Shown here piece after piece: positions 7,250-48,283 of a DNA stretch of 64,000 nt. Made by a program: the position numbers and the translations under genes. Origin of the DNA: an uncultured Eubacteriales bacterium (lineage in GTDB: Bacteria; Bacillota; Clostridia; Oscillospirales; CAG-382); NCBI GenBank assembly GCA_934444645.1, contig CAKSCV010000007.1:1447-65446 (forward strand). Direction: 5' to 3'. Within the stretch, counting starts at the first letter, position 1. Every line of letters begins with the position of its first letter. The notes under the pieces are model-generated. The model did no database searches. It was not told the origin of the DNA and worked only from the letters and a program-made list of their open reading frames with translations.

Positions 7250-7400
7250 GAAACACGGTATTGCTGTTTTACACAAAAAAACGGCGTGTCAACTGTGCAA
7301 CAGTAACAATCTTTGAAATTGCTGTTGAAATTGCGCGGTAAGTGTGCTATACTTATCCATACGATATTATGCGAGAATTTGCTCAAAGGAGAAAACCCTT

Positions 7401-8375
7401 ATGAAAAAGCTTACATTCGGCATTCTTTGCCTTGGTGTGTGCGTGTGCTTAGCGCTGTCCTCCTGCTCAAAGCCCGAGGAAGAAAACACCGATAACCCGA
7501 CCGGCGGCGAACAAAATTCCGATCTTGCCGGAATCGTTTTGCCGAAGGATGAGGACGAAGAAGTCGTTGTATACGAATACGATTGGTCCTCGGACGGTGC
7601 AACGCTCATCGCCTATAACGGCGATTTTGAAGAGGTTAACCTCGAGGAAACGGTCATCCGCATGAAGAAGGAAAAGCAAAAGAAGACCGTTACCGAAGAA
7701 GTGACCGATAAAGACGGCAATGTGACGACCGTCGAAAAGGAAGTCGAAGAAACCGTCGAGGTTCCGGTGGAATATACGCTCATCGGCATTGATGCCGGCG
7801 TCTTTATGAACAATGAGACCGTCAAAAAAATCACCATTCCGAATACGGTGACCACCATCGGCGAAGCGTGCTTCCAAGGCTGCACGGCTCTTGAAGAAGT
7901 GAAGCTGCCGGAGGGACTTACCGAGATCGGCCCGCGTACATTCTATGGCTGCGACGCATTAGTCAGCTTAAACATTCCGGATACGGTGACCACCATCGGT
8001 CAGTTTGCTTTCGGCGAATATTTCAAGCAGACGGAATGGTATAAGAACCTCCAGGGCACGTCGGTCATCGTCGGCGACGGCATTCTGCTCAAATACAACG
8101 GCGGCGCAAACGTTTCTTACGGTGATGAAGTCAAGAAGATTGCCTACTACGCCTTTACCGATTCTGCGGCACAGACCGTCCGTCTTTCGGACGCGACCGA
8201 GGAAATCGATGCGCTTGCATTCTATCGCTCGGGCGCAACGGTGGAGGTTCCCGAAGGCTCGGCACTCTACAATACGCTCCGCTTGAACAACATCAAAGTT
8301 TCTACTTATGGCGGCGGCGCGGCTCATACGGAAGCAACCGATACGGGCGCGGAAGACGTCGCAGCGGAGAAATAA
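7401..8375 (+). CDS. Leucine-rich-repeat (BspA-like) surface lipoprotein
   Basis: Lipobox LALSSCSK and an acidic linker. Repeated IPNTVTTIGEACFQGC / IPDTVTTIGQFAF LRR_5-type units. Confidence 0.75.
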   Translation: MKKLTFGILCLGVCVCLALSSCSKPEEENTDNPTGGEQNSDLAGIVLPKDEDEEVVVYEYDWSSDGATLIAYNGDFEEVNLEETVIRMKKEKQKKTVTEEVTDKDGNVTTVEKEVEETVEVPVEYTLIGIDAGVFMNNETVKKITIPNTVTTIGEACFQGCTALEEVKLPEGLTEIGPRTFYGCDALVSLNIPDTVTTIGQFAFGEYFKQTEWYKNLQGTSVIVGDGILLKYNGGANVSYGDEVKKIAYYAFTDSAAQTVRLSDATEEIDALAFYRSGATVEVPEGSALYNTLRLNNIKVSTYGGGAAHTEATDTGAEDVAAEK

Positions 8376-11671: not shown

Positions 11672-13303
11672 CTATATATTTCCGCTCTTGTCCACCGACA
11701 ATACCTTGCAGTACAAGCCTTCCTTTTCGGCTTCAAGCGGCAGACGGCAGGCGACGGTGGAGGCGATCTGATTTTCGCGCGACGGAACAAAATCCGCCTT
11801 TTTGTCTGCAAATATGCGGTAATAGCAGTGATTCGGGTCGGATACCGGTTCCCAGGTGAGCGTATGCGCCGAAACGGCTAGTCCGGCGGCACTTACCGTG
11901 TGCGTCTTTTCGAGATAATCGGTGGTGAAAAAGGTCACGCTTTCGGGTTTTAATTCATAAACGGCCGCGTTCGACTCTACAACTGCGGCAAAATCCGGCA
12001 GATCACAGAAGCGGTTGAACGGCACGTTTTTGGGGTCATATTCATACACGCGTATCGGCTTTGCGCCAAAAAGTGTGCTTTCCAATCTTACGGTGACCGG
12101 CTCCTTCCGGCGGTTGACAATGCCGACCGAAAGGGAACCGTCGCGGTTCAAGAGACCGCAGGTGCGAAGAAGCGCGTCGCATGACGTGACGTCAAGCACA
12201 TACGAATTCCGCTTGAAGAGCTTTATCATGGGTGCAACGCCGTAGTAATGGGCGCGTGCGCCGTAGTCCTTGGCGAAATCGTCCCATTTGGTGAAGCCGA
12301 ATTTGTTGTATTTGGTGTCGGTCGTACAGCTGAAAAAGCGTTCGGCTTCCGACCATTTCTCGGCATAGCTGCCGTGCTTGTTCGAATAGGCACAGGAAAA
12401 CGGGGCAGGGTGGTCGCAAAAAGACCAATAGCACAGTGCGAAAATGCCGGCATTGATGGCGGCAAACGCCATTTCGCAGAGCATTAACGCAGAAAAAGCG
12501 CATTCCTCCGGATTCTCAAAATATCGGTTGGTATCGATGACCGCACCTTCGTTAAAGCTTAGCTGACCGGCGTTTTTCTGAATGCCGACCTCGCCTAAAA
12601 TGACGCGTTTGCCGAAATTCCGGATGGCTTTGCCGACTATTTTTTCGCACTGCTCCTTAAAAAAACCGTAAAACGACAGGTCGCGGATATCGTGCGCGCG
12701 CTCATAGATGTGAACGCAATAATCCTCCGAAATATCCGCCATGTTTTCGATGGCCCAATCGACGGTTGACCAGTTTTCGTATTCCGACGCGTCGGTGGCA
12801 AGAAGTCCGATCGGAAGACCGCGCCTTTGGAAGGCGTCGTATAAATAGGTGTGGTATTTTTTGAAGGTCTCAAGGTCGTCCATCAGCACGCCCCACATGA
12901 CGCGCGACATTTCGTTGGAAAAACAGTAGTAGCGCAGGTGCCGGACATCTTTTTCAAAATAGAGATAGGCTAACCGGTCGGCAACGTCTTCAGCATAGTT
13001 TCTCATTTCGTCATCCGAAAAATGCAGCTTCCCGGCGGCGGGCGTGAGATACAGGGGCGTATCCGTCCACTTCTGCATTTGCGTATAATATTCGGCAAAT
13101 TCGTCCATGGCTTCTTTCGTCCAATCCGAAAAGCCACCAAAGGTACGCATAAAGCCGGGCGATATCTCACGGTAATTTTTGCAGATGATTTGGTTGAAAT
13201 GCTCTTTGTCCATGACGTGATACATGGTTGCGTCGTTGTTATGAAAGCCAAGTCCGCCGAAAAAGGCGGCATAGGGATTACGGCTTATGCGGATATCGGT
13301 CAT
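11672..13303 (-). CDS. Putative glycoside hydrolase (clan GH-A-like TIM barrel plus C-terminal beta-sandwich)
   Basis: 543 aa with an FSNEMS (Asn-Glu acid/base-like) motif and an ILGEVG (nucleophile-like) motif. Strong AAGGAG RBS. The family was not identified by eye. Confidence 0.5.
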   Translation of the reverse strand: MTDIRISRNPYAAFFGGLGFHNNDATMYHVMDKEHFNQIICKNYREISPGFMRTFGGFSDWTKEAMDEFAEYYTQMQKWTDTPLYLTPAAGKLHFSDDEMRNYAEDVADRLAYLYFEKDVRHLRYYCFSNEMSRVMWGVLMDDLETFKKYHTYLYDAFQRRGLPIGLLATDASEYENWSTVDWAIENMADISEDYCVHIYERAHDIRDLSFYGFFKEQCEKIVGKAIRNFGKRVILGEVGIQKNAGQLSFNEGAVIDTNRYFENPEECAFSALMLCEMAFAAINAGIFALCYWSFCDHPAPFSCAYSNKHGSYAEKWSEAERFFSCTTDTKYNKFGFTKWDDFAKDYGARAHYYGVAPMIKLFKRNSYVLDVTSCDALLRTCGLLNRDGSLSVGIVNRRKEPVTVRLESTLFGAKPIRVYEYDPKNVPFNRFCDLPDFAAVVESNAAVYELKPESVTFFTTDYLEKTHTVSAAGLAVSAHTLTWEPVSDPNHCYYRIFADKKADFVPSRENQIASTVACRLPLEAEKEGLYCKVLSVDKSGNI

Positions 13304-16450: not shown

Positions 16451-17842
16451 CTATTTTCCCACGCAGAAATGCGAAAATATGGTGCTTACCACCTGCTCGG
16501 ACACCTGTCGGCCGTCAGCTTCGTTCAATGCACCGAGTGCTTCTTCCAGGTCAAGACCTGCCATGTCGCGCGTCAGTGCCCACAGGGCGTTCTTGGCGTT
16601 TTCCAGGCACGAGACCGCTTTTTGCACGGCGGCATACTGGCGGGCGTTGGTCAAAACCAAGCCGTGCTCCAACGCGTCGCTTGCGAGAGGGAACAGCGTA
16701 TGCAGGTGATTTTCCAATTCGTTTAAGCCGCCGTTTTGGGCGGAAATGGGCAGAATATGTGTAATCCCGGCGTCCTTTAAGGCGGTTTCCCACCGGTTTA
16801 TCTGTTCGCCCGAGGCGATATCGGTTTTGTTGATCAGGGCGATAACCGTCTTTTTTTCGGCCAACGCCGCAATCTGCGCGATAAAGGCGTTTTCTTCGGC
16901 GGTGATATCATCGCGTGAGCCGTCAAACACGGCAAAAATAAGCTCGCCTTCTTCGAGAGCTTGCTCCGACCGCTCCACGCCGATTTTTTCGACGGTGTCG
17001 GCGGTTTCGCGAATGCCTGCCGTGTCGGCAAGCCTTAGCTTGATGCCGGCGCATACGACATTTTCGGTGATGACATCGCGCGTGGTTCCGGCAATGTCGG
17101 TCACGATGGCGCGGTCATTTCCGGCAAGCAGATTGAAAAACGTGGATTTTCCGGTGTTGGGCGCACCGGTGATGACGGTATAAATGCCCTGCGTGACCGC
17201 GCGTCCGGCAGCATATGTGGCACAGAGCGCACGCAGTTCTTCCGAAAGCTGTTCGATCTGCTCTGCCATTTCGTCGTCTGTCACATCGCTCATGTCCTCG
17301 TCGGGATAGTCGATAAAGGCATAGACTGCGGCAAGAAGAGCGGTGATCTTATCCGCGGCAGCGCGGATCTTTTTTCCGAGTCCGCCTTCAAGCTGGGCGG
17401 AAAACAAGCGTAATTCATCAGCACTTTCAGCGTCGAGCAGATCACCGACCGCCTCGGCTTGGGTGAGGTCAAGCTTTCCGTTTATAAAGGCGCGCTTGGT
17501 AAATTCGCCGGGAAGTGCAGGCTTAGCGCCGGCGGCAAACAGTGCACCGAGAATGAGACTTGTGCCGACCGGACTGCCGTGACAGCTGATCTCGACGGTG
17601 TTTTCGCCGGTATAGGAATGCGGCGCACGGAACACGGTGGCAAGACCGGTGTCGATTTTCCTGCCGTCGGCGGCAAAGGCCGTGCCGAATACGGCAGATC
17701 GCGCCGGACAGTCTTGAAGTGCTTTGCCGTTTTTCGGACGAAAGACGGCGGAAGCGATTGTTACGGCATCATCGCCGGAAAGGCGGATAACGGCGACGCC
17801 GGCTTTGCCGGCACCGCTGGAAAGAGCCGCACAGGTGTGCAT
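16451..17842 (-). CDS. mnmE: tRNA uridine-5-carboxymethylaminomethyl modification GTPase MnmE
   Basis: G domain GAPNTGKSTFFN, DTAGIR, NKTD; C-terminal FCVGK. Start trimmed to MHTCAALSSG with a GAGGTAA RBS. The longer ORF-track N-terminus reads into the repeat element. Confidence 0.9.
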   Translation of the reverse strand: MHTCAALSSGAGKAGVAVIRLSGDDAVTIASAVFRPKNGKALQDCPARSAVFGTAFAADGRKIDTGLATVFRAPHSYTGENTVEISCHGSPVGTSLILGALFAAGAKPALPGEFTKRAFINGKLDLTQAEAVGDLLDAESADELRLFSAQLEGGLGKKIRAAADKITALLAAVYAFIDYPDEDMSDVTDDEMAEQIEQLSEELRALCATYAAGRAVTQGIYTVITGAPNTGKSTFFNLLAGNDRAIVTDIAGTTRDVITENVVCAGIKLRLADTAGIRETADTVEKIGVERSEQALEEGELIFAVFDGSRDDITAEENAFIAQIAALAEKKTVIALINKTDIASGEQINRWETALKDAGITHILPISAQNGGLNELENHLHTLFPLASDALEHGLVLTNARQYAAVQKAVSCLENAKNALWALTRDMAGLDLEEALGALNEADGRQVSEQVVSTIFSHFCVGK

Positions 17843-18098
17843 AACGGTTACCTCGTGAGATATTTTTGATAGGGTGCTTTTCGGTTTGCGAAAAGCACCG
17901 AAAGGCGGCGAAAAAGCACACGGAGTGTGCCGTCCCGGCAGGGACAAACTTTCCGAAAGGAAAGTTTCAAAGGCGGCATGGCCGCCGGAAGATGGCGCGA
18001 AGCGCAAAGATTTGTTGCGATAGCAACAAGGGATATGCCGTCTGCGGCGGCGAAAGGATTCAATTGGATTGCATGAGTTTGTTGTCTGTGTGTGCTGT

Positions 18099-18200
18099 TT
18101 CGAGGTTTGCAGAACCTCGAAGCTTTCTTAAAAAGGTTTTAATTGTTGCGGTGCGAAGCTGCAGCTGCGGTGGGCTGATTCGAGGTTTGCAGAACCTCGG
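18099..18200. repeat. Copy A left-arm hairpin units (two hairpins, 80-bp spacing)
   Basis: TTCGAGGTT-TGCAG-AACCTCGAA at 18099-18121, and again starting at 18179. Confidence 0.8.
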
Positions 18201-18294
18201 AGCTTCCCGGAAAGGGAACGGGTTTATTCTTTTCGCGTGTACGAAAAGAACCAAAAGTACACCAGAGGTTTGCGAACCTCTGGACTCCGGGGAC

Positions 18295-18408
18295 GATTCA
18301 AATCGCCGGTCGATACGTAATTTCCGCTAAAATAACCAGCCATCATCAGGTAACCGGTTTTGCGAAAAGCTGCAACTTCGCCGGGTATCGCCGGCAATGA
18401 TTTGAATC
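18295..18408. repeat. Long hairpin module H (copy A, left arm)
   Basis: GATTCAAATCGCCGGTCGATAC (18295-18316) pairs with GTATCGCCGGCAATGATTTGAATC (18385-18408). The stem is about 21 bp with small bulges and the loop about 68 nt. Confidence 0.75.
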
Positions 18409-18473
18409 GGTGCGACGTTCCGGCTTTACAGCACAAAATTAGAGCGAACAGCAAAAGAACAGCTGTATTCTTT

Positions 18474-18723
18474 GCAAACAGTAGGTTAAGGGTGGTGCGA
18501 ATGGGAGATGGAGGGTGGAAAAGAGTTGCTTTGGGTGGCAATTAAGGAAAGGTTTGTGCAAAAGAAAAGCTTTTGGTTTGTGAAAATGGGAATTTTTTGC
18601 AGACAGTAGGTTAAGGGTGGTTGGAATGGGCAGCGGAGGGTGGAAAAGGGGTGTTTTGGATGGTAATAAAGAAAAGTTTGTGCGAATAAACGGCTTTTTG
18701 TACGTGAAAAAGGCGGCTTTTGA
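18474..18723. repeat. Tandem duplication of about 125 bp inside the centre of copy A
   Basis: CAGTAGGTTAAGGGTGG...GGAGGGTGGAAAAG occurs at 18479 and again at 18604. Copy B has a single copy, at 24377. Confidence 0.7.
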
Positions 18724-19038
18724 GGACAGTAAAAAGTTGTTCGAATGAGCGGTGTTTTGGTTGCGAAAAAGAGCGGCTTTTGAGAGCAAAGCGTAAAGCT
18801 TTCTGTAAATGGAAACCTTTTGTTTTGCGGAAAAGGGCTGTTTTTTTCAGCTCATACAAAGCTACCCGATAAAGAAAAAACTCATTTTAGCACTGCAAAA
18901 TTCCAACTTCCCACCGCACCAAAGCTAACGAGCAGTCACAAATTTTATCCGCGACAGCCTACTATGAGCTTGCAGTACACCATCTCTTTTTCGAAAAATA
19001 ACGGTCTTGCGTTTGCACTACGGTAACCCTTTCGCACC

Positions 19039-19151
19039 GATTCAAATCATTGCCGGCGATACCCGGAAAACTTACGGTTTTCGCAAAACCGGTTACCTGA
19101 TGAATGCCGGTCACTTTAACTACAATCATGTATCGACCGGCGATTTGAATC
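19039..19151. repeat. Long hairpin module H (copy A, right arm, inverted)
   Basis: GATTCAAATCATTGCCGGCGATAC (19039-19062) pairs with GTATCGACCGGCGATTTGAATC (19130-19151). Reverse complement of the left-arm H. Confidence 0.75.
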
Positions 19152-19235
19152 GAGGTCGCAGGACGGAGTCCCGCGTGCTTTTTGGTTACTTTTTGCACGA
19201 TGCAAAAAGTGACAACTCGTATTTTCTCGCAGGAA

Positions 19236-19463
19236 GCTTCGAGGTTCTGCAAACCTCGATTCAGCTCACCGCAATGGCAGCTTCGCACCGCAACAATTAA
19301 AACCTTTTTAAGGGAGCTCCGAGGTTTTGTAAACCTCAAATCAGCCCACCGCAGTGATATCTTCGCACCACAACAATTAAAAACTTTGTAAGAGAGCTTC
19401 GAGGTTCTGCAAACCTCGAATCAGCACACCGCAGCCGCAGCTTCGTACAAACCAATTAAAACC
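19236..19463. repeat. Three tandem 80-bp hairpin units (copy A right arm)
   Basis: Units start at 19236, 19316 and 19396. Each begins GCTYCGAGGTTYTGYAAACCTCRA and ends CAACAATTAAAACC. Confidence 0.85.
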
Positions 19464-19510
19464 TCTCCGGAACTTTTCCATCCTTATTTGTAAGGCACAA
19501 AAAGCAGGAC

Positions 19511-19533
19511 AAAAAAGCCCTCCCTGCCGGGAG
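19511..19533 (-). terminator. Possible intrinsic terminator after the ParE-like gene
   Basis: On the minus strand: CTCCC-GGCA-GGGAG followed by GGCTTTTTT. The stem is short and is nested in a larger GCAGGAC/GTCCTGC pairing. Confidence 0.4.
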
Positions 19534-19556
19534 TTCGCCGTCCTGCGGCGGCATTT

Positions 19557-21692
19557 TCAGACATCGGCAAGATCAATATATTCCGCACCGTGCGCCGCAA
19601 TGTAAGCTTTTCGGGCAATAATGTCGTCGCCAAGCAGCGTGTTGAACATGATATACGTTGCCTTTTCGTCCTCCGGCCCGATGCGGATCAAACGGCGCGA
19701 AGCCGGATTCATGGTCGTTTGGTTCATCATGTCCGGTTCGTTTTCACCAAGACCCTTGGAACGCATGATCTTGTACGGCGCGTCGCCAAGCTTTTTTAAG
19801 ATGTCGAGTTTTTCTTTTTCGTTGTAGGCAAACTGCGTGCCGAGCTTTTTCGATTCGATTTCATATAACGGCGATTCCGCTATATACACGCGTCCCTCGC
19901 GGATAAGCGTCGGCAGCAGCCGGTAAAACATGGTCAAAATCAGCGTGCGGATCTGATAGCCGTCCTCGTCGGCATCGGTACAGATGATGATCTTGCTCCA
20001 TTTGAGCGAACCGATGTCAAACTGCGACAGATTCTTGTCCTTGCCTTTCGAGGTGCCAAGCTCCACGCCGCAGCCGATGACCTTCAGAAGATCCACAATG
20101 ATATCGCTCTTGAAAATTTTGTCATAGCTGCTCTTTAGGCAGTTGAGCGTCTTGCCGCGCACCGGCATGACCGCCTGATAATCCGGATTGCGCGCAAGCT
20201 TGACTGAACCGAGTGCGCTGTCGCCCTCCACAATGTACAATTCGCGTTTGGCGGCATCCTTTGAGCGGCAGTTCACGAATTTTTCCACACGGTTGGCAAT
20301 ATCAATGTTCTTTTCGAGCTTCTTTTTGATGTTGACACGGGCGCTTTCGGCGTTTTCGCGGCTTCGCTTGTTGATAAGCACCTGGGCGGCGGCTTTTTCG
20401 GCTTGCTTGGGATTTTCTGCGAAGAAAACCTCAAGCGAGTGTAAGAAAAAGTCGGTCATAGCCTCCGCGATAAACGTGTTGGTGATAGCTTTTTTGGTCT
20501 GATTTTCGTAGCTGGTGCGCGTGGAGTGGGAATTGACGATGAAAACAAGGCAGTCCTCGATATCGCCATAGGTGACCTTACTCTCGTTTTTGGCATATTT
20601 GTTGTTGTTTCGCAAATAGATATCAAACGCCTTGACAAAGGCCGAACGTGTCGCTTTATCCGGTGAGCCGCCATGCTCAAGAAAGCTGGAATTGTGGTAA
20701 TATTCCACACGGCTTAGTATGTTGGAAAAACAGAAAACCATTTCGATTTTCAACTTATATTCGTTCATGTCTCCGCGGTCTTTGCCGCGGCATTCGGTCT
20801 TGAAATAGGCCGGAACGGTGAGTGCATACGTGCGTGCGGCGTTTTCCTCGGCTTGGTCGTCGGTCGAAGCTTCGTCGGCTTCATCCGCTTCGTCGGCTTC
20901 GTCGTTTTCGTCGGTTTCTGCCGCTTGTTCCTCTGCTTCTTCGGCTTCTTCGGACGGATTATAGCCGCCGTCGGCACTGATGATCTCATTCATGTAATCG
21001 ACGATGCCGCGTTTGTATAAATATTCGCGCTTTTCGTGTGTGCCGTCCTCGTTTTCGAAATCCAGCGTGATGGTCACGCCTTCATTGACCACCGCCTGCT
21101 TTTTGACGGTTTCATCAAAAAAGACAAACGGGACGTTGATATCGGTAAAGACCGCAAGATCCGGCTTCCATTCGACCACTGTGCCCGTGCGGCGGCGTAC
21201 CGGCTCTTCGACAATGAGGTCGGTGGCCGGATAACCCTTTTCAAAACGGATGGAGGACTTGTTTTCCTTTGTATAGCTGGTGACCGTCATGTATTCCGAA
21301 GCAAACTGTGTGGCGCACGCACCAAGCCCGTTCGTGCCGAGGGAATATTCGTAGGCTTCGCCGTCGTCGTTGTCGTATTTGCCGCCGGCATATAATTCAC
21401 AGTATACCAAATCCCAGTTGTATCGTCCCTCGCGCTCATTCCAGCCGAGCGGAACGCCGCGTCCGAAGTCCTCGACCTTGATCGAATGATCCTTGCGGAC
21501 CTCGACATTGATGCGGCTGCCGTAGCCTTCGCGCGCTTCGTCGAGGGCGTTGGCGAGAATTTCGAGAAACGTGTGGCCGCAGCCGTCAAGACCGTCCGAA
21601 CCGAAAATAACGGCCGGACGCAGACGAACCCTGTCTGGGCCTTTTAGGGAGGTAATGCTGTCATTTCCGTAATTTTTTTGTTCTTTTGCCAT
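19557..21692 (-). CDS. Type IIA DNA topoisomerase subunit B (ParE/GyrB-like) with an acidic low-complexity insert
   Basis: GHKL ATPase N-terminus (FLEILANALDEAREGYG, EDFGRGVP, GTNGLGA). Toprim ELYIVEGDSALGS and TDADEDGYQIRTL. Acidic stretch EEAEEAEEQAAETDENDEADEADEADEASTDDQAEE at about aa 247-285. Confidence 0.8.
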   Translation of the reverse strand: MAKEQKNYGNDSITSLKGPDRVRLRPAVIFGSDGLDGCGHTFLEILANALDEAREGYGSRINVEVRKDHSIKVEDFGRGVPLGWNEREGRYNWDLVYCELYAGGKYDNDDGEAYEYSLGTNGLGACATQFASEYMTVTSYTKENKSSIRFEKGYPATDLIVEEPVRRRTGTVVEWKPDLAVFTDINVPFVFFDETVKKQAVVNEGVTITLDFENEDGTHEKREYLYKRGIVDYMNEIISADGGYNPSEEAEEAEEQAAETDENDEADEADEADEASTDDQAEENAARTYALTVPAYFKTECRGKDRGDMNEYKLKIEMVFCFSNILSRVEYYHNSSFLEHGGSPDKATRSAFVKAFDIYLRNNNKYAKNESKVTYGDIEDCLVFIVNSHSTRTSYENQTKKAITNTFIAEAMTDFFLHSLEVFFAENPKQAEKAAAQVLINKRSRENAESARVNIKKKLEKNIDIANRVEKFVNCRSKDAAKRELYIVEGDSALGSVKLARNPDYQAVMPVRGKTLNCLKSSYDKIFKSDIIVDLLKVIGCGVELGTSKGKDKNLSQFDIGSLKWSKIIICTDADEDGYQIRTLILTMFYRLLPTLIREGRVYIAESPLYEIESKKLGTQFAYNEKEKLDILKKLGDAPYKIMRSKGLGENEPDMMNQTTMNPASRRLIRIGPEDEKATYIMFNTLLGDDIIARKAYIAAHGAEYIDLADV

Positions 21693-23722: not shown

Positions 23723-24192
23723 GAAATGCCGGCAAAAGCTTTGCTTTTGCCGGCATTTCTGCTTGCGGAGCAAGCATATTCACGCGAAGCGTGTTATATG
23801 CCCCGGCAGGGGCAAGACTTCCCGTGCAAACGGGAAGTTCCGGAGGCGGCTTTGCCGCCGGAAGAAGCCGCGAAGCGGCAACAGAAAAATGCCGCCGAAA
23901 GGCGGCGAAGAAGCACACGGAGTGTGCCGCCCCGGCAGGGACTCTGCCGTAAGGGGGCAAAAGGATTTAATTGGGTTAGTGCGAATTTGTTGTCTGTGTG
24001 CGCTGATTCAAGGTTTGCGTAACCTCGAGGCTTTCGAAAGGTTTTAATTGTTGCGGTGCAAAGCTGCGGCTGCGGCGCGCTGATTCGAGGTTTGCAGAAC
24101 CTCGGAGCTCCTTGCAAAGGGATACGGGTTGTTACTTTTTGCATCGTGCAAAAAGTAACCAAAAAGCACGCGGGACTCCGTCCTGCGACCTC

Positions 24193-24306
24193 GATTCAAA
24201 TCGCCGGTCGATACGTGATTGCTGCGAAAATGATCGGCGTTCATCAGGTAACCGGTTTTGCGAAAAGCTGCAACTTTGCCGGGTATCGCCGGCAATGATT
24301 TGAATC
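24193..24306. repeat. Long hairpin module H (copy B, left arm)
   Basis: GATTCAAATCGCCGGTCGATAC (24193-24214) pairs with GTATCGCCGGCAATGATTTGAATC (24283-24306). Confidence 0.75.
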
Positions 24307-25000
24307 GGTGCGACGCTCCGGCTTTACAGCACAAAATTAGAGCGGAGATCAAAAGAATAGCTGTATTCTTTGCAGACAGTAGGTTAAGGGTGGTTGGAAT
24401 GGGAAGCGGAGGGTGGAAAAGGGGTGTTTTGGATAGAAACATGGAAAGGTTTGTGCGAATAAAAGGCTTTTTGCACGTAAAAAGGCGGCTTTTGAGAACA
24501 GTAAAAAGTCGTTCGAACGAGCGGTGTTTTGGTTGCGAAAACGAGAGGTTTTTGAGGGCGGTTTGTAAGCTTTCTGTAAATGGAAAGATTTTGGTATGCG
24601 AAAAAGGCAGATTTTCAGCTCATGCAAAGCAACCCGATAAAGAAAAAACTTTTTTTCAGCGCACAACGACACCAATTTCCCACTGCAACAAAACTAACGT
24701 GCAACTGCAAATTTCATCCGCGACAACCTACTGTGAGCTTGCAGTACACCTTTTCTTTTTCGGAAAACAACGGTCTTGCGTCTGCACTACGGTAACCCTT
24801 TCGCACCGATTCAAAGCCTTTTCGCTGCCGTTTTGCAGACAAAACCGGTTTCGGCACGAGCCGTCGGGAATTTTTGCAAAATCACTTCCGGCAGAGCTTT
24901 GAATCGTCCCCGGAGTCCAGAGGTTCGCAAACCTCTGGCGTGCTTTTTGATTCTTTTTGCACGACGCAAAAAGAATGTAAAAACGTCCCCTTTGCAGGGA

Positions 25001-25226
25001 GCATCGAGGTTTTCCAAACCTCGAATCAGCACACCGCAGTGACATCTTCGCACCGCAACAATTAAAACCTTTCAAGGAAGCTCCGAGGTTCGCAAACCTC
25101 GAATCAGCACACCGTAGCCGCAGCTTCGCACCGCAACAATTAAAACCTTTTTAAGGAAGCTTCGAGGTTCTGCAAACCTCGAATCAGCGCACAAAGATAA
25201 CAACCTCGCGCAATCCAATTAAATCC
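25001..25226. repeat. Three tandem 79-bp hairpin units (copy B right arm); the last is the terminal variant
   Basis: Units start at 25001, 25080 and 25159. The terminal unit ends GCGCAATCCAATTAAATCC. Confidence 0.85.
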
Positions 25227-25442
25227 TTTCGCCGCCCTTGGCGGCTTTTCTTTCCGACTTGCGGCGGTGTCCCTGCAGGGACGGCACACCCCGTGTGCAT
25301 TTCGCCGCTCCCAGCGGCAGTTTCCGGCATTTCCGGCCGGAAACTTTTTTCTGCTTTTTGATGACCCAAAAAGCAGCTTGCGCCGACAAAAAAGAAACGG
25401 CTTTTTTGTCGGCTTATTTTTGTGCAATTTACAAATAAACTC

Positions 25443-25471
25443 TTGCAATTTGTTATGAGTTTTGCTATAAT
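25443..25471 (+). promoter_or_regulatory. Sigma-70-type promoter for pyrH-frr-uppS-cdsA
   Basis: TTGCAA, 17 nt spacer, TATAAT, about 20 bp outside the repeat element. Confidence 0.55.
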
Positions 25472-27605: not shown

Positions 27606-27693
27606 AGTGCGCGGCTGCTTGGCGCGGCGTACCTGTTTTGCAAATTCCGGTATCACGTATCCGTAAGCGGTACGACAACAAGGATGTGACGAA

Positions 27694-36579: not shown

Positions 36580-36655
36580 AGGGGAATAGCTCAGCTGGTA
36601 GAGCAGCGGTCTCCAAAACCGCGTGCCGAGGGTTCGAATCCTTCTTCCCCTGCCA
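36580..36655 (+). tRNA. tRNA-Trp (anticodon CCA)
   Basis: Acceptor AGGGGAA/TTCCCCT, anticodon loop CTCCAAA, T arm GGTTCGAATCC, encoded CCA. Confidence 0.9.
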
Positions 36656-36693
36656 GTTTTCCGGAAATGCTCGGAAAGCTTATCAAATCATCC

Positions 36694-36769
36694 GCGGATT
36701 TAGCTCATTTGGTAGAGCGCGACCTTGCCAAGGTCGAGGTGGCGGGTTCGAGCCCCGTAATCCGCTCCA
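36694..36769 (+). tRNA. tRNA-Gly (anticodon GCC)
   Basis: Cloverleaf folded by hand. Anticodon loop TTGCCAA, T arm GGTTCGAGCCC, encoded CCA. Confidence 0.9.
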
Positions 36770-36867
36770 GCGGCAATGTGCCGCAGCAAAACACAAAAAT
36801 GTGTGCGTGAAAAATTCACGGTGCGCAAACAGATTTGACCGTATTGTCCCAAGCGCGTTTTATTCCC

Positions 36868-36943
36868 GGAGGGTTAGCTCAGCTGGGAGAGCATCTGCCT
36901 TACAAGCAGAGGGTCACAGGTTCGAGCCCTGTACCCTCCACCA
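36868..36943 (+). tRNA. tRNA-Val (anticodon TAC)
   Basis: Acceptor GGAGGGT/ACCCTCC, anticodon loop CTTACAA, encoded CCA. Confidence 0.9.
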
Positions 36944-36947
36944 TTAC

Positions 36948-37024
36948 GGTCCGGTAGTTCAGTTGGTTAGAACGCCAGCCTGTCACGCTGGAGGTCGTGG
37001 GTTCGAGCCCCATCCGGATCGCCA
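36948..37024 (+). tRNA. tRNA-Asp (anticodon GTC)
   Basis: GGTCCGGTAGTTCAGTTGGTTAGAAC..., anticodon loop CTGTCAC, encoded CCA. Lies 4 nt after tRNA-Val. Confidence 0.9.
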
Positions 37025-37058
37025 CTTTATTTGAACAGCGGCATGTGTTTCTGTTTAC

Positions 37059-37134
37059 GCCTCTGTAGCTCAGTTGGTAGAGCAGGGGACTGAAAATCCC
37101 CGTGTCGTTGGTTCAATTCCGACCGGAGGCACCA
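37059..37134 (+). tRNA. tRNA-Phe (anticodon GAA)
   Basis: Anticodon loop CTGAAAA, T arm GGTTCAATTCC, encoded CCA. Confidence 0.9.
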
Positions 37135-37163
37135 GCCGGTATCGAAATAAGGTGCGGCTACCT

Positions 37164-37239
37164 GCGGATTTAGCTCATTTGGTAGAGCGCGACCTTGCCA
37201 AGGTCGAGGTGGCGGGTTCGAGCCCCGTAATCCGCTCCA
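37164..37239 (+). tRNA. tRNA-Gly (anticodon GCC), second identical copy
   Basis: Identical to 36694-36769. Confidence 0.9.
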
Positions 37240-37321
37240 ATGGCGAAAGCCATAGCAATACGTGCTGCATACCGAGCAGCAAACAAAAAGAACAGCGTTT
37301 CCCGAGACGCAGACGTGAGAT

Positions 37322-37396
<75 letters not shown>

Positions 37397-37411
37397 TTCT
37401 TTTTTATGTAT

Positions 37412-37487
37412 GCCTCTGTAGCTCAGTTGGTAGAGCAGGGGACTGAAAATCCCCGTGTCGTTGGTTCAATTCCGACCGGAGGCACCA
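37412..37487 (+). tRNA. tRNA-Phe (anticodon GAA), second identical copy
   Basis: Identical to 37059-37134. Confidence 0.9.
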
Positions 37488-37530
37488 CCCGTTTGGGTTG
37501 TGTTATCATGCATCCGAAACGGACAAGTAC

Positions 37531-37607
37531 GGTCCGGTAGTTCAGTTGGTTAGAACGCCAGCCTGTCACGCTGGAGGTCGTGGGTTCGAGCCCCATCCGG
37601 ATCGCCA
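37531..37607 (+). tRNA. tRNA-Asp (anticodon GTC), second identical copy
   Basis: Identical to 36948-37024. Confidence 0.9.
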
Positions 37608-37638
37608 GCCTTCGGGCAAAACAAAATATTCTGCCTAT

Positions 37639-37714
<76 letters not shown>

Positions 37715-41552: not shown

Positions 41553-42038
41553 TTAAGCGAGGCGAAAGCCGATGTGTGCGTTCCTGCCGCAGAGAGCGGT
41601 GAGGCTTATGGTTTTGCCGTGAACGGCAAGCACATGATCATATACGGTTCCCACGATGTATTTCACTTGCGGAAAAACCGTGTCGAAACCGGATACGACC
41701 ATGTTTCCGTCACTGTCATAGGTGAGCGTTTCGCCGGGTGACAGTGTGCTTTCGACGCCGGCGCCGAAAGCCGCATAAATCGTGCGGTCGGCATAAATTT
41801 TGCCGTTTTTGACGACAAAGACGTCGGTGACGGGGCTTTGGTTGACCGAATGGACAAAGGTGACCGCAAACTCGGTGCCTTCCGGCGCGGAAAAGCTGCG
41901 ATAGACTTTGCCGGTCTCGGTGTTGTACAGCTCCAAACGGCGCGGACGCAGAACGAAAATGAAAAGAAGCGCGGTGCATAACAGAGCCACAGCCGTAACC
42001 GCTTTGGCAGCTACGGCTGTGACGGTGGTCTTTTTCAT
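41553..42038 (-). CDS. DUF1850 domain-containing protein (TAXI-TRAP associated)
   Basis: N-terminal TM helix followed by a beta-rich domain (FAVTFVHSVNQSPVTDVFVV). Sits between the TAXI SBP and the permease, as is typical of this family. Confidence 0.7.
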   Translation of the reverse strand: MKKTTVTAVAAKAVTAVALLCTALLFIFVLRPRRLELYNTETGKVYRSFSAPEGTEFAVTFVHSVNQSPVTDVFVVKNGKIYADRTIYAAFGAGVESTLSPGETLTYDSDGNMVVSGFDTVFPQVKYIVGTVYDHVLAVHGKTISLTALCGRNAHIGFRLA

Positions 42039-42051
42039 AGAAAAAACGTGT

Positions 42052-43044
42052 TTACTTGATGACGCCGACTTCTTTGAAGTACTTTTCAGCACCCGGATGA
42101 AGCGGAATCTCTGCCGGGATACCGACGACGGCGGTATCGACATTCAATTCGGCACCCTTGGTATGAGCGGCGGCGATGGCATCCTTGTTTTCAAAGATGG
42201 CCTTGGTGATCTGGTAAACGGTTTCTTCCGAAACGTCGTTGTCAATGATGTAGGTGGCCATGACGGCGACGGTGTTCACATCCTCGGTCATGCCGTTATA
42301 GGTGGAAGCCGGAATGGCCTGACGGGTGTAGAAGCCGTACTGCTTGGAAAGCTCGGCGAACTTATCGTCGTCAACCGGAACGACCGTGATCTCGTGGCTC
42401 ATGGCGAGGTCTGTGATAGCGGTGGTCGGGATACCGGCAACGCAGAAGAAGGCGTCGATCTTTTCGTCCTTCAGAGCGTCTGCCGACGGACCGAAGCCGA
42501 GGTTCTGCTTGTTGATGTCTTTATCGATATCGATGCCGTAAGCGGCAAGAATCTGCTTGGCGTTGAATTCCACGCCGCTGCCTGCGTCGCCGACGGAGAC
42601 GCGCTTGCCGGCAAGGTCAGCAACCGACTGGACGCCGCTTTCCTTGGAAGCGATGATTTGGCAAAGCTCCGGATAAAGCGTTGCAACAGCCGAGAAATCC
42701 TTGGTTTGTGCGCCATTAAACAGGTCGGTGCCGGTGTAGGCGTAGTACATAACGTCGTTCTGAACGACAGCCATGTCGGCTTCGCCGGTCTGAATCAGCT
42801 GAATGTTGGCTTTGGAAGCACCGGTGGACTGAACGTCAAACTTGATGCCGGTCTTTTCCTGCAGAATGCTGCCCATGGCCATGCCGTACCCGTAGTAGGT
42901 ACCGGTGTTGCCGCCGGTGGCGAGAACGATTTTGGATGCGAGCGCATCGCCATCCTTGTTTTCCTGTTCTTTTTTGCCGCAGGAGCCGAGAAGCATACTT
43001 CCGGCAGTGAGAACGGCAAGAGCGAGTGCAAGACTCTTTTTCAT
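42052..43044 (-). CDS. TAXI family TRAP transporter solute-binding lipoprotein
   Basis: Lipobox LLGSCGK; motifs LATGGNTGTYYGYG and VQNDVMYYAY are typical of TAXI receptors. Confidence 0.85.
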   Translation of the reverse strand: MKKSLALALAVLTAGSMLLGSCGKKEQENKDGDALASKIVLATGGNTGTYYGYGMAMGSILQEKTGIKFDVQSTGASKANIQLIQTGEADMAVVQNDVMYYAYTGTDLFNGAQTKDFSAVATLYPELCQIIASKESGVQSVADLAGKRVSVGDAGSGVEFNAKQILAAYGIDIDKDINKQNLGFGPSADALKDEKIDAFFCVAGIPTTAITDLAMSHEITVVPVDDDKFAELSKQYGFYTRQAIPASTYNGMTEDVNTVAVMATYIIDNDVSEETVYQITKAIFENKDAIAAAHTKGAELNVDTAVVGIPAEIPLHPGAEKYFKEVGVIK

Positions 43045-43104
43045 ATTGATTTCCTCCGAAAATGTGTTTTTTTGAATTTTCCAAAAATGACTAATTCACA
43101 CATT

Positions 43105-43133
43105 ATTATAATAGGAAGAAAACCGTCTGTCAA
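43105..43133 (-). promoter_or_regulatory. Consensus sigma-70 promoter of the TAXI-TRAP operon
   Basis: Minus strand reads TTGACA, 17 nt spacer, TATAAT. Confidence 0.6.
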
Positions 43134-43151
43134 GAGTTCTGCAAAAAAAGC

Positions 43152-43184
43152 TGTGAAAACAGCCGATAATCGTTTGTTTTCACA
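43152..43184. promoter_or_regulatory. Candidate operator: perfect 10-bp inverted repeat TGTGAAAACA-N13-TGTTTTCACA
   Basis: Lies just upstream of the TAXI -35 in the divergent intergenic region. A third half-site, TGTGAAAAA, is at 43203-43211. Confidence 0.4.
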
Positions 43185-43361
43185 AAAAGCGGCGATAATT
43201 TTTGTGAAAAATGTGGAAATTACAGGGCGAATTTTACGGGTGATTTTTGAAAATATGCAGGAATGCAAAATGAATTGTGCAGAAAAGCGGAAACTGCGGT
43301 TGACGGATATTCTCATTTGACCGCAAAAAGTGACGCTTTCTATCCTTTTTGATGAGAGTGC

Positions 43362-43431: not shown

Positions 43432-44937
43432 ATGAATCTTGTTACCATCATGAATTTTGTCCGCGGTGTGGAGCCGCGCAACCCGAACTTGGATCTGTTG
43501 GAACCGGTGGTCAATCAGATCGCCTTAAATAAAGCCTATGGTTTTGACAACACATTTCTATTGCAGTATGATGCACTCATCGACCCGAAATTCCAAGAGT
43601 TGTTTTCGGCAGAGCGCGACCAACACATGGAACTCGGCATTTGGTTCGAGGTGGTGCAGCCGCTTGTCGAAAAGGTCGGCATCCAATGGCGCGGCAGACC
43701 CGGCTATGCGTGGGATTGGTATGTGAATCCGGGTTTCCTTCCGGCGTATACGCATGACGAAAAAATCGCGATGATCGATGAATTCATGGAGACATTCCGC
43801 GCGATCTTCGGTGCATATCCGCAGTCGGTCGGCTCGTGGCTGCTCGATATCGATTCGGTTCGCTACATGACGGAAAAATATGCTATCCGCTATTTCGGCA
43901 TCTGCCGCGAGCAGTTGGCGGTGGACGCTTACACGCTCTGGGGCGGTCCGTATAACCAACCGTATTACCCGTCGGTACACAATATCCTTTGCCCGGCGCA
44001 GAACGCTGAAAATCAGGTAAACGCACCGGTGTTCCGGCTTCTCGGCATTGAGCCGATCCGCGGCTACAATGAAAAACGGTATGCCAAGGATCCTGAATGC
44101 TATGGCTGTGCGACCATGGAGCCGTTCTGGAAATACGGCCAAAACAAGGACTATATGGAATGGTTCTTCAAGACCTATTTCGACAACGAAAACTTAGGGC
44201 TTGCCTATACGCAGATCGGTCAAGAGAACAGCTTCGGCTGGAAGGGCATGAAGGATGGTCTTACGCTGCAGCTGGCACTTGTCAAACGCTATGCCGACCA
44301 AGGCAAAATCCGGGTCGTCAAGACAAGCGAAGCCGGCAGGCTGTTTGCCGAGGCAAATACGCTTACGCCGCCGGCGGCACTTTGTGCCGACACCGATCCG
44401 GTCGGTCAAAACGGCTACAAATCGTTCTGGTACACCTCGAAAAATTACCGCGCCAACGTCTTTTTTGAAGGCGAAACGCTGTATTTCCGGGATATTCAGA
44501 AGTTTGACGAACGCTATACCGAACGCTATCTCGATGAGCCGTGCTTAAAATGGGATGCGGTGTACGACAACCTGCCGGTCGCGGATGAACGCGGTTGGAG
44601 CTTTGAAAAGGATTCGCACGATGCCGGTTTGGATTTTGACGGAGCGTTTGTGTTTGAGGGCGTCGAACGGGACGGCAGCGCACTTGCGGTTACGGCACGT
44701 GCCGCAGACGGTAAAAAAATCACGATTCGTTTGTCCGAATCCGAAATCACCGTTTCGGGCGGCGCGGTATTGCGGTGGCGTTTCGGCAAGTTTGCGGATT
44801 TTGCGGCAGACAAGGATGGCGTAAGCTTTACGCATAACGGCTTTTCCTATCGTGTCGGCGTGAAAGGCGTTCTTACGGCCGAGCAAAAGGATCTGATACT
44901 AACCGGTGAAGATATCACGCTTGCAATGGCGGAATAA
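43432..44937 (+). CDS. Hypothetical protein, possibly a carbohydrate-processing enzyme
   Basis: 501-aa ORF with normal soluble-protein composition and its own promoter and terminator. No signal peptide. The family was not identified by eye. Confidence 0.55.
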   Translation: MNLVTIMNFVRGVEPRNPNLDLLEPVVNQIALNKAYGFDNTFLLQYDALIDPKFQELFSAERDQHMELGIWFEVVQPLVEKVGIQWRGRPGYAWDWYVNPGFLPAYTHDEKIAMIDEFMETFRAIFGAYPQSVGSWLLDIDSVRYMTEKYAIRYFGICREQLAVDAYTLWGGPYNQPYYPSVHNILCPAQNAENQVNAPVFRLLGIEPIRGYNEKRYAKDPECYGCATMEPFWKYGQNKDYMEWFFKTYFDNENLGLAYTQIGQENSFGWKGMKDGLTLQLALVKRYADQGKIRVVKTSEAGRLFAEANTLTPPAALCADTDPVGQNGYKSFWYTSKNYRANVFFEGETLYFRDIQKFDERYTERYLDEPCLKWDAVYDNLPVADERGWSFEKDSHDAGLDFDGAFVFEGVERDGSALAVTARAADGKKITIRLSESEITVSGGAVLRWRFGKFADFAADKDGVSFTHNGFSYRVGVKGVLTAEQKDLILTGEDITLAMAE

Positions 44938-48000: not shown

Positions 48001-48279
48001 TGACATGGCAAGTGCGCACGCGGCTTTGTCGGGAACCGCTCCGACAAGACCGCCGCTTTCGCGGAAAACGCGGTTGCACAAACGCTTGAAGTTGATGACC
48101 TCGATATACATATTGGCAGGATTCCCGAGCCGGTCGATGAGCAGCCGTTCCGCCGAAACCGCGCTTTGCTCCGGCACGATCAAAAAAGCCTGCTTTTTCT
48201 GCCTGATACAGTCCTCTAAGCGTGCAAGCAGTGCTTCGGTTTTGCCGGTTCCGTGAAGTCCGAAAATGCGTGTGAGCAT
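45028..48279 (-). CDS. addB: Helicase-exonuclease AddAB subunit AddB (PD-(D/E)XK nuclease with Fe-S Cys cluster)
   Basis: N-terminal P-loop GLHGTGKTE. C-terminal nuclease LRIVDYKTG. Cys cluster RCPFSYFC ... CDYCDYKEIC. Start trimmed to MLTRIFG. Confidence 0.8.
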   Translation of the reverse strand: MLTRIFGLHGTGKTEALLARLEDCIRQKKQAFLIVPEQSAVSAERLLIDRLGNPANMYIEVINFKRLCNRVFRESGGLVGAVPDKAACALAMSHVLSQSADLLSEYAPLADDTDFAAKMLATVTEMHRSRIRPDDLETLCKTLAGNGSAALSDKLHDVALAYRAYDAYLSGTLDFPGDLLDKLYETLCGFRFFEGKHVFLDAFYGFTAQELAIIGKILPSAEETCITFLCENEKTANKCFLRAKNAALACRRLAAESGVPVKDIFLTENRKHAPHSALAHIAAHFSLDALAVPRPEVPLSGVTLTACEDIYAEAAFAVQTVSDLLTSGVLPREIVLCARNQADYDGILDTAFESAGIPYAFDKAVDLSTTPTAALVFSAFDIYFSWSLEAVSAYIKSGLSGLSDEVADKLDLYLHTWNIHGKAYFHEEWHMNPAGMRADAADTALLALFSDAHDALLSCLDTFSASLDAAKTASDMAHAVYELTVNIARLSGKDRFDDRADGEYLDLLCRALDTVALTLAEQTVTPHRFYELLRAVIKNMSIGKIPELLDQVRFSPVTLMRTDGIRYVILLGVNDGIFPAKPESSDVFRDTERKKLRSLGVELAETADDKAFDELFLAYTALCSAKDGAFVLYRTGSLEKKELYPSVLVALLEKMLGITADVYPKADTAAALAGAVSDESLFEQFLTLPDGVEKATVRAYFADKPAYMTRLAAIEKSDDARRPLSDDMLTELYGDTMTGSYSKLERFRRCPFSYFCTYTLRLAAAPEGRVGNAERGNIIHAVLEELVPEIAARHKAGNPFDEAALKSAIHAKLEELLERMMPNAGSALSGRFAYLFAKTERVLVPLCKLLCEELTVSRFEPVDFELSIGPDGAVKPVELPLTGGKTLKIVGKIDRVDLYRDAHSGKTYLRIVDYKTGSTKFDLSDIHRGFNLQMLLYLYTLLQNGETRYGKVYPAGVLYSHVADPKIPVGDKVLSDSGDDESLDYKADVSGLLVADADILFAMDSTGSGTYIPVKLKTGVLAENAAGTLPEDEFFALLGEASAFAADMACGILRGDKRALPEGAKAHNPCDYCDYKEICPKAV

Positions 48280-48283
48280 GATA

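Follow-up and report, generated by a model that had tools for sequence, protein, structure and literature searches.

Kilobase-sized palindromic non-coding DNA elements with a conserved, unstructured core in uncultured human-gut Clostridia

The DNA analysed here, referred to below as the window, is a stretch of 64,000 nucleotides (G+C content, 51%) from an uncultured Eubacteriales bacterium of the CAG-382 lineage (assembly GCA_934444645.1, contig CAKSCV010000007.1, positions 1,447 to 65,446). Toward its left end the genes for MnmE (16451-17842, minus strand) and for a GyrB/ParE-like protein (19557-21692, minus strand) are separated by 1714 bp, a gap that holds one copy (copy A, ~17900-19554) of a family of large palindromic repeats, the subject of this report. 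An initial annotation, made from the letters of the window, had seen no credible gene in this gap and had described a second full copy and a truncated third elsewhere. Both observations were borne out: the 1714 bp contain no open reading frame (ORF) conserved among the copies, copy B (23728-25420) lies between a MATE gene and pyrH, and the truncated copy C occupies positions 1-300. Compared with copy A, copy B is 78-82% identical across ~1.4 kb and copy C is 76-88% identical. All three copies lie within the first 25 kb, of which they take up 3.6 kb; none is found across the next 39 kb of the window. A 20-mer from the 80-bp tandem units of these elements (see below) occurs seven times in the window versus an expectation of 0.00.

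A repeat of this kind might be a chimera or a collapsed repeat in the metagenome-assembled genome (MAG), a concern already raised in the initial annotation, and most short-read contigs do terminate within the elements. However, a contig from a Hadza metagenome (L001) covers the whole of copy A without a mismatch (100% identity), L067, from a different cohort, does the same for 1096 bp of copy B, and each copy is distinct (75-90% identity) and has its own unique flanks. Because assemblies from independent cohorts reproduce copy A and this part of copy B exactly, the elements are not assembly artefacts, an explanation to which we attach practically no weight.

The modular palindromic anatomy proposed for copy A, with its arms, 80-bp units and long hairpins, was found module by module where it had been placed. 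Next to the mnmE start lies a pre-existing hairpin, GGGTGCTTTTCGGTTTGCGAAAAGCACC (17873-17899), which marks the insertion boundary and is itself outside the element. The left outer zone (17900-18052) is a string of small GC hairpins, e.g., GCACACGGAGTGTGC, GTCCCGGCAGGGAC, GGCGGCATGGCCGCC and GGCGCGAAGCGC. It is followed by the left arm (18053-18211, plus strand), made up of two 79-80-bp tandem units of the form AAAGGWTTTAATT..GTGCGAAG..GCTGATTCGAGGTTTGCAGAACCTCG, then by three short hairpins between the units and the long hairpin (18204-18218, 18227-18250, and 18262-18283 [CCAGAGGTTTGCGAACCTCTGG]), and by the left long hairpin itself (18294-18409, 116 nt), whose closing stem is CGATTCAAATC/GATTTGAATCG. 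The core (18401-19046, 646 nt) has the plus strand as its G-rich strand, with a GC skew going from +0.8 to -0.45. It opens with a box that we call IN (TTTGAATCGGTGCGA, 18401-18415), carries ACAGTAGGTTA at 18478 and again at 18603 and a 125-bp tandem duplication (~18467-18591 and 18592-18716), and proceeds through a variable stretch of degenerate repeats to a C-rich part with AGCTAACGAGCAG, GAGCTTGCAG, TTTTCGAAA and GTCTTGCGT, ending in the IN' box (TCGCACCGATTCAAA, 19032-19046). The right long hairpin (19038-19152, 115 nt) is the inverted counterpart of 18294-18409. The right arm (19173-19470, minus strand) comprises a hairpin at ~19176-19215 and three 80-bp units (19231-19470) inverted with respect to those of the left arm, and the right outer zone (19471-19554) consists of hairpins including a terminator-like site for the GyrB-like gene (minus-strand sites at 19533-19520 and 19521-19506). 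Three inverted pairs underlie the symmetry: 18090-18216, where the repeat comparison puts the two left units, versus 19303-19429 (127 nt, 86% complementary), 18253-18368 versus 19078-19193 (116 nt, 74%), and 18366-18415 versus 19032-19081 (50 nt, 88%). The last includes the exactly complementary 17-mer GATTTGAATCGGTGCGA (18399-18415/19032-19048), which had been singled out at first reading and is indeed there.

Copy B has inverted arms of its own. Its left outer zone (23728-23959) contains the MATE gene terminator and nine more small hairpins, and its left arm (23960-24307, plus strand) two units (23960-24116), a hairpin (24133-24158) and a long hairpin (24192-24307). In the core (24299-24815, 517 nt, plus strand) the boxes are identical in order and orientation to those of copy A. 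The right arm (24807-25230, minus strand) carries a long hairpin (24807-24906) whose sequence belongs to a second type, two hairpins (24917-24938 and 24951-24975) and three units (24988-25230), and the right outer zone (25231-25420) three terminator-like hairpins facing outward. Of copy C, truncated by the window edge, what is left is the final unit or two of a right arm (1-130) plus an outer zone of hairpins (131-300) that stops where a minus-strand gene (309-1778) has its stop codon.

Alignment of eight copies together with motif mapping on ~40 loci gave a common plan for the family, whose members measure 1031-1700 bp. From outside to inside, the modules are small GC hairpins, tandem units, short hairpins, a long hairpin and the core, after which the same modules follow in mirror order. 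The outer zones are built of small GC-rich hairpins and differ in composition from copy to copy. The tandem units (79-80 bp, one to four per arm; consensus AAAGGWTTTAATT..GTGCGAAG..GCTGATTCGAGGTTTGCAAAACCTCGAAGCTCCC from 74 distinct units aligned) each repeat the GTGCGAAG box and a GAGGTT-N5-AACCTC palindrome, and both the hairpin stem and the box are nearly invariant in the 74 units, with no covariation. Two or three short hairpins lead from the units to the long hairpin, which is imperfect (100-116 nt), comes in several unrelated sequence types and is always closed by the stem CGRTTCAAA/TTTGAAYCG. In the copies examined by inverted-repeat comparison the arms are 72-93% complementary. GAA triloops closed by C-G are frequent among the hairpins; GCGAAGC is a notably stable DNA mini-hairpin. 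Every copy is intergenic, most of them at gene 3' ends.

The core is oriented and 334-650 nt long, its length varying through repeat gain and loss. Its 5' part runs from TTTGAATCGGTGCGA through 62 nt to ACAGTAGGTTA, a G-rich stretch and a variable number of degenerate 60-125-nt repeats, and its 3' part is a C-rich stretch with AACTAACGTGCAG, GAGCTTGCAG, TTTTCGAAA, GTCTTGCGT and CCTTTCGCACCGATTCAAA. The whole is bordered by a near-invariant inverted box, TTTGAAYCGGTGCGA(AAG). Across 26 distinct cores there is little or no variation in the IN and IN' boxes or in another six blocks. The core's two inner ends are related to each other as inverted copies, old and by now diverged, the 5' profile matching the reverse complement of the 3' end (E = 1e-4). 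The asymmetric centre recognised initially does exist (18401-19046), but it is the most conserved part of the element, not a spacer. The G-rich part also contains the words AGCGG and GAAGCGG (window positions 18490-18520, 18615-18645 and 24390-24420), which are Chi words of B. subtilis and S. aureus and which may well be there by coincidence; an AddB gene is located at 45028-48426.

To define the range of the family, the unit 20-mer was searched for among 185,579 GTDB representatives. It was found in ten contigs, all from one species, UMGS882, three more being chance matches in unrelated phyla; the nearest genome record is that of "uncultured Clostridiales bacterium UMGS882." A two-box core pattern matched 37 metagenome stretches, of which 36 were kept as loci after one, a JGI contig (L037), proved an unrelated chance match and was rejected as a family member. 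All matched contigs whose names state a source are from the human gut, and the related DNA available for comparison amounts to ~0.5 Mb. The 26 distinct cores taken from the window and the metagenome loci have a mean pairwise identity of 79% (range, 68-95%). At least 15 of the 26 come from the metagenome that yielded MAG UMGS882, and some contigs hold two or three elements at distances of 3-11 kb.

More divergent members, representing three further lineages, were found in L042 and L035 (both from one other sample), in L064 and in L074, the MnmE proteins of the latter two being 77% and 68% identical, respectively, to that of the window. All four keep the long hairpins, short CTTTTYG...CRAAAAG hairpins and, in varying measure, the core boxes, and all four lack the 80-bp units. 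Because the potential pairing partner of ACAGTAGGTTA is missing from these members, this block is conserved as sequence and not as helix. The L074 member (7318-8262, GCA_964646725.1), located between uppS and cdsA, is very divergent, left-truncated and retains only some boxes; it was recognised by eye from its conserved boxes and right-arm modules and was missed by nhmmer profiles of both core ends, which gave nothing in L074-L076 and only copies A and B in the window. No solo hairpin modules were found elsewhere in the window. Among the incomplete copies, that of L031 (1-2361) has a core that ends after ~110 nt and gives way to ORFs that, by appearance alone, we presume to be phage-like, and L025 (1885-2349) holds half an element between two ORFs, presumably, as judged by eye only, pyruvate phosphate dikinase (the long ORF) and an AraC-like protein. 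Phage and plasmid records (blastn) and viral contigs (pattern search) showed no similarity to the element, and our literature searches turned up no description of one like it.

The family is non-coding. Among the 26 cores the longest stretches free of stop codons fall on different strands, in different frames and at different positions, with no frame-conserved ORF, core indels are not multiples of three, and the only "protein" clusters common to the loci are spurious ORFs within the repeat. A 214-aa ORF in copy B, thought from the start not to keep its frame between copies, is in fact not retained in the others. On this comparison a protein-coding function was rejected.

A second possibility is a multi-copy long non-coding RNA gene with the core as the transcript and the hairpins terminating or protecting it, or, in one version, a GGA-rich protein sponge. 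The oriented and conserved core bracketed by outward-facing terminator-like hairpins, its strong strand asymmetry (GC skew up to +0.8) and the several GGA words of its G-rich part would suit such a gene. However, in the Rfam search that had been suggested for these elements nothing matched at the gathering score and there was only noise at E<=10. A scan for sigma-70-type promoters found none inside copy A or B, the sole good one being the pyrH promoter at 25443-25471, just outside copy B, and a search by eye for sigma-54 or sporulation-type motifs gave nothing convincing. Mismatches in the arm hairpins show no preference for G-T (G-U in RNA) over A-C (23 versus 18 in left arms, 18 versus 18 in right arms), and therefore no sign of either strand being read as RNA. 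A covariation analysis across copies, of the kind likewise proposed at the outset, was run on 29 cores: for the core ends (140 nt and 205 nt), the RNAalifold consensus folds reached only 0 to -3.9 kcal/mol on either strand, with 0 pairs showing compensatory double changes on either strand. A one-way transcript would moreover have no need of the mirror-image flanks seen in every lineage and would have to accommodate a core whose length ranges so widely by repeat gain and loss. The RNA gene was rejected on the Rfam result, the RNAalifold pair counts for both strands and the mismatch count, and we regard it as improbable.

Folded as single-stranded DNA, a left arm gave a z score of -5.6 and the left outer zone of copy B -83.6 kcal/mol (z = -10.4), whereas the interior of the copy B core folds no better than shuffled sequence (z = 0.01). 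Structure resides in the arms and conserved sequence in the core, and the core is the oriented, unstructured, sequence-conserved part of the element while the arms are its variable part. This combination of structured arms and invariant core boxes fits the recognition of defined sequences in DNA that would extrude hairpins.

Comparison with relatives revealed sites with and without the element. Empty sites, which the initial annotation had recommended looking for, were found for copy A in L061 (MnmE 82% identical to that of the window) and L064, both of which keep the gene order MATE/DUF1893/GyrB-like/mnmE: the distance from the GyrB-like stop to the mnmE start is 58 bp in L061 and 60 bp in L064, compared to the ~1.65-kb copy A in the window. 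As L061 has a weaker form of the 17873-17899 hairpin (also kept in L039, the contig with the copy A ortholog), the inserted material is ~17900-19554, including both outer zones, which are missing at the empty sites. The extent first given, 17873-19463, thus captured an inserted segment but not its limits, the hairpin at 17873-17899 predating the insertion. Only ~57 bp are left upstream of the mnmE start in the window (17843-17899; cf. L061 4406-4463), in which lie the hairpin that was kept and a weak -10-like word (TATCAA). A second insertion polymorphism affects the uppS-cdsA spacer, which holds a 945-bp member in L074 and measures 88 bp in the window (27606-27693).

Once present, the copies persist vertically. 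Sites A and C are occupied in UMGS882 too (site C in L011), with flanks ~85-93% identical to those of the window, and the site downstream of the MATE gene is occupied also in L061 and L064. Within one species the copies are 100% identical between samples, and the orientation of copy B is unchanged over the part covered by L067. Orthologous copies have been remodelled and modules shuffled: the left arm of copy A is built of two units and its core measures 646 nt, while the ortholog in L039 has one unit, other outer hairpins (a left outer zone of different composition) and a 334-nt core; long-hairpin types are swapped between copies; and, in the 26-core identity comparison, a core mostly has its closest match in some copy other than its ortholog. 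For reference, identity at third codon positions of mnmE between the window genome and UMGS882 is 84%. Unit number varies between strains as well, with one unit fewer in L003 and a difference between L019 and L041, the flanks of which are 98.4% identical. In UMGS882, a full copy (L023, 3111-4379) lies directly downstream of a MATE paralogue; its interpretation as a copy B ortholog with a flipped core was withdrawn because the MATE genes share no nucleotide similarity.

The differences between the outer zones of orthologous copies look as if hairpins come and go in place, and they might be taken to indicate that the elements are passive insulator or terminator clusters grown by palindrome amplification and kept for stopping read-through or stabilising mRNA 3' ends. 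The intergenic location of all copies, mostly at gene 3' ends, is in line with this, as are the family-type hairpin at the L061 "empty" site and the enrichment of copy B in terminator-like sites (13 found versus 4.5 expected). Copy A, in contrast, is not enriched (6 found versus 4.4 expected), 1.7 kb far exceeds what termination needs, and the other intergenic regions of the window are devoid of these hairpin types. Since neither the fixed module order nor an unstructured core with invariant boxes would be explained, we consider such clusters very unlikely.

The main rival, ahead of the RNA gene and the terminator cluster, is a chromosomal DNA site that acts in cis and is kept because it serves the host, in which a cluster of protein-binding sites and cruciform-prone arms would serve in nucleoid organisation, supercoiling, segregation or the control of recombination. 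There are precedents in the BIMEs of E. coli, which bind gyrase and IHF. It is boxes, not helices, that are conserved in the core across paralogues (79% mean identity) and lineages, with conservation peaking in the centre instead of the ends; GAGGTT-N5-AACCTC and GTGCGAAG are almost invariant without covariation, as a protein site would be; and copies are retained at orthologous sites, identical within species. On the other hand, the divergent lineages do without the 80-bp units, the occupied sites differ among lineages, and the density of copies along the window is uneven, three in one part and none in the remainder. Core orientation, moreover, is not significantly tied to the GC skew of the flanks (9 co-oriented versus 4 opposite) or to the direction of the neighbouring genes, copy A being antisense and copy B sense, and we know of no binding protein. 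All told, we judge a host site to be a rather unlikely explanation.

The comparisons above show a non-coding DNA repeat that came to occupy further intergenic positions as the clade diversified, was passed on vertically and was reshaped by slippage and recombination. Taken together, the symmetry, the strand-neutral hairpins and the GAA triloops point to movement in trans via a folded DNA form. The reading we favour, in which we place about as much belief as doubt, is that the family consists of non-autonomous, protein-less, palindromic interspersed DNA elements of uncultured human-gut Clostridia that are rarely mobilised in trans. The element would be selfish or semi-domesticated DNA, and on rare occasions an enzyme whose gene lies elsewhere in the genome would place a copy between genes at a new position. 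The conserved boxes would be what this putative enzyme recognises, with folded single-stranded or cruciform DNA as its most plausible substrate. After insertion the copy would be passed on vertically and remodelled in place by replication slippage (affecting unit number and core repeats), by gain or loss of small hairpins, and by recombination or gene conversion between copies.

Several observations weigh against mobilisation in trans. Neither the window nor the surroundings of any copy yielded a gene for a transposase, a recombinase or an HUH/RAYT protein, and no neighbouring gene recurs that could be a candidate for the enzyme. The statement that the window encodes no transposase, RAYT, recombinase or Cas protein held in family scans of its larger ORFs, some others, mostly in the ribosomal-protein region, being left out and several of those scanned matching nothing at all. 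The one filled/empty pair of junctions compared (site A) shows no target-site duplication, though at ~83-86% identity between the genomes a short one could be hidden. The conservation is inverted for a transposon, with a conserved centre and highly variable termini that lack sharp ends. There are no near-identical copies (the 95% maximum and 79% mean identity between cores noted above), and therefore no sign of recent activity. Because the L061 "empty" site carries a family-type hairpin, a deletion there is as possible as an insertion in the window lineage. Finally, the core could just as well have stayed conserved for so long through a function in the host. More tentatively, the conserved, unstructured core with its invariant inverted boxes may be the working part of an undescribed system, either a new mode of DNA mobilisation, with an enzyme encoded by the host or the element acting at internal instead of terminal sites of a kilobase-sized fold-back substrate, or a domesticated chromosomal cis-element maintained by selection across genera of gut Clostridia, a notion we hold possible at best.

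If this last notion is correct in either of its versions, these elements would form a kind of bacterial genome component for which no counterpart has been described, beyond an oversized repetitive extragenic palindromic (REP) sequence or miniature inverted-repeat transposable element (MITE). Bacterial non-coding interspersed repeats usually measure tens to a few hundred bases, while here they are kilobase-sized, mirror-symmetric and conserved in the middle. At least 15 copies in a related genome make up a sizeable share of a small genome, and short-read assemblies of these gut species almost always fragment at the elements, which limits MAG quality across the clade. The invariant boxes point to a putative DNA-recognising protein, the empty and filled sites provide dated gain events, and the pairing of structured arms with an unstructured core offers a handle on how selfish or structural DNA spreads and is tolerated in bacteria.

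Apart from the family, the window has several features of its own. The GyrB/ParE-like protein next to copy A (711 aa) owes its match to GyrB/ParE models to residues ~307-705 alone, at scores far short of the cut-offs, and its first ~300 residues match no ATPase domain; its DUF1893 and mnmE neighbours are kept in relatives. From its sequence, it may be a divergent paralogue of the type IIA topoisomerase B subunit. Three large ORFs had no Pfam or NCBIfam match (11672-13303, minus strand, 543 aa; 41908-43320, plus strand, 470 aa; and 43432-44937, plus strand, 501 aa). A cluster of ten tRNA genes at 36580-37714 has Gly-GCC, Asp-GTC and Phe-GAA in duplicate, and the Rfam scan detected an S10-Clostridia leader.

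Among known systems, the nearest functional analogy is with REPs and their composites, the BIMEs and REPINs. Like these, the elements are extragenic, non-coding mosaics of hairpins, with inverted doublets folding into a larger hairpin, no obvious target duplication, presumed mobilisation in trans and long residence at a site. A REP is an imperfect palindrome of 20-40 bp that bears an unpaired GTAG or CGTC tag on one side (PMC3733652). Of 118 perfect-stem hairpins from eight elements, none had GTAG/CTAC and three had CGTC/GACG within 6 nt of the foot. The elements are furthermore 10-15 times larger than REPINs and have an unstructured conserved core of 334-650 bp, their modules are heterogeneous (14-nt to 116-nt hairpins plus the 80-bp units), and a RAYT gene turned up neither in the window nor among the genes beside the copies. 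Because the defining features of REPs are lacking, we do not count the family among REPs, BIMEs or REPINs, in agreement with what had been supposed initially; the wider supposition that it matches no insertion sequence, MITE, attC site or structured RNA held as far as Rfam (E<=10), the phage, plasmid and viral collections and the REP tags reach.

Bacterial MITEs (Correia/NEMIS, RUP, ERIC, bcr1) are likewise non-autonomous and intergenic, with inverted ends, tens of copies per genome and insertion polymorphism, seen here as presence or absence at collinear sites (site A; uppS-cdsA). A typical MITE is shorter than ~600 bp, its terminal inverted repeats are short, sharp and shared with a parent insertion sequence, and it comes with a target duplication. 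The present elements are 1031-1700 bp long, their ends are fuzzy and least conserved, no target duplication was seen, and there is no parent element in the phage, plasmid or viral collections searched. A CRISPR array was also rejected: the whole 80-bp unit is conserved, including the stretch between hairpins, with only 1-4 units per arm, and the window proteins scanned gave no match to a Cas family. The pneumococcal BOX elements (boxA-boxB(n)-boxC) share the variable tandem sub-units, strong predicted hairpins, intergenic location and absence of an ORF, but they are much shorter and not mirror-symmetric about a conserved core, and no sequence similarity to them is evident. Both MITEs and BOX elements resemble the family in individual traits only. 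OLE, GOLLD, ROOL and HEARO RNAs resemble the core in being several hundred nucleotides long and non-coding, with conserved blocks and Firmicutes or gut hosts; unlike them, the present family has no Rfam match and no promoter found, is multi-copy and mirror-symmetric, and has a core without covariation or excess folding.

The closest architecture is that of the eukaryotic Foldback/Galileo elements, which also have long inverted arms of tandem sub-repeats around a unique centre. Autonomous Galileo copies encode a P-superfamily transposase (PMC4168063). Foldback elements are, however, eukaryotic and make target duplications, whereas here the middle is conserved rather than the ends, and none of the ~40 loci has a gene between the arms. 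The ends of Mu and Tn7 carry several transposase-binding sites, to which the GTGCGAAG box and palindrome repeated in each 80-bp unit, in opposite orientation on the two arms, bear a likeness; they differ in that here there is no transposase, no 5'-TG...CA-3' termini were identified, no target duplication was seen and divergent lineages are without the units. We file the family as a bacterial non-coding interspersed repeat belonging to no named repeat family.

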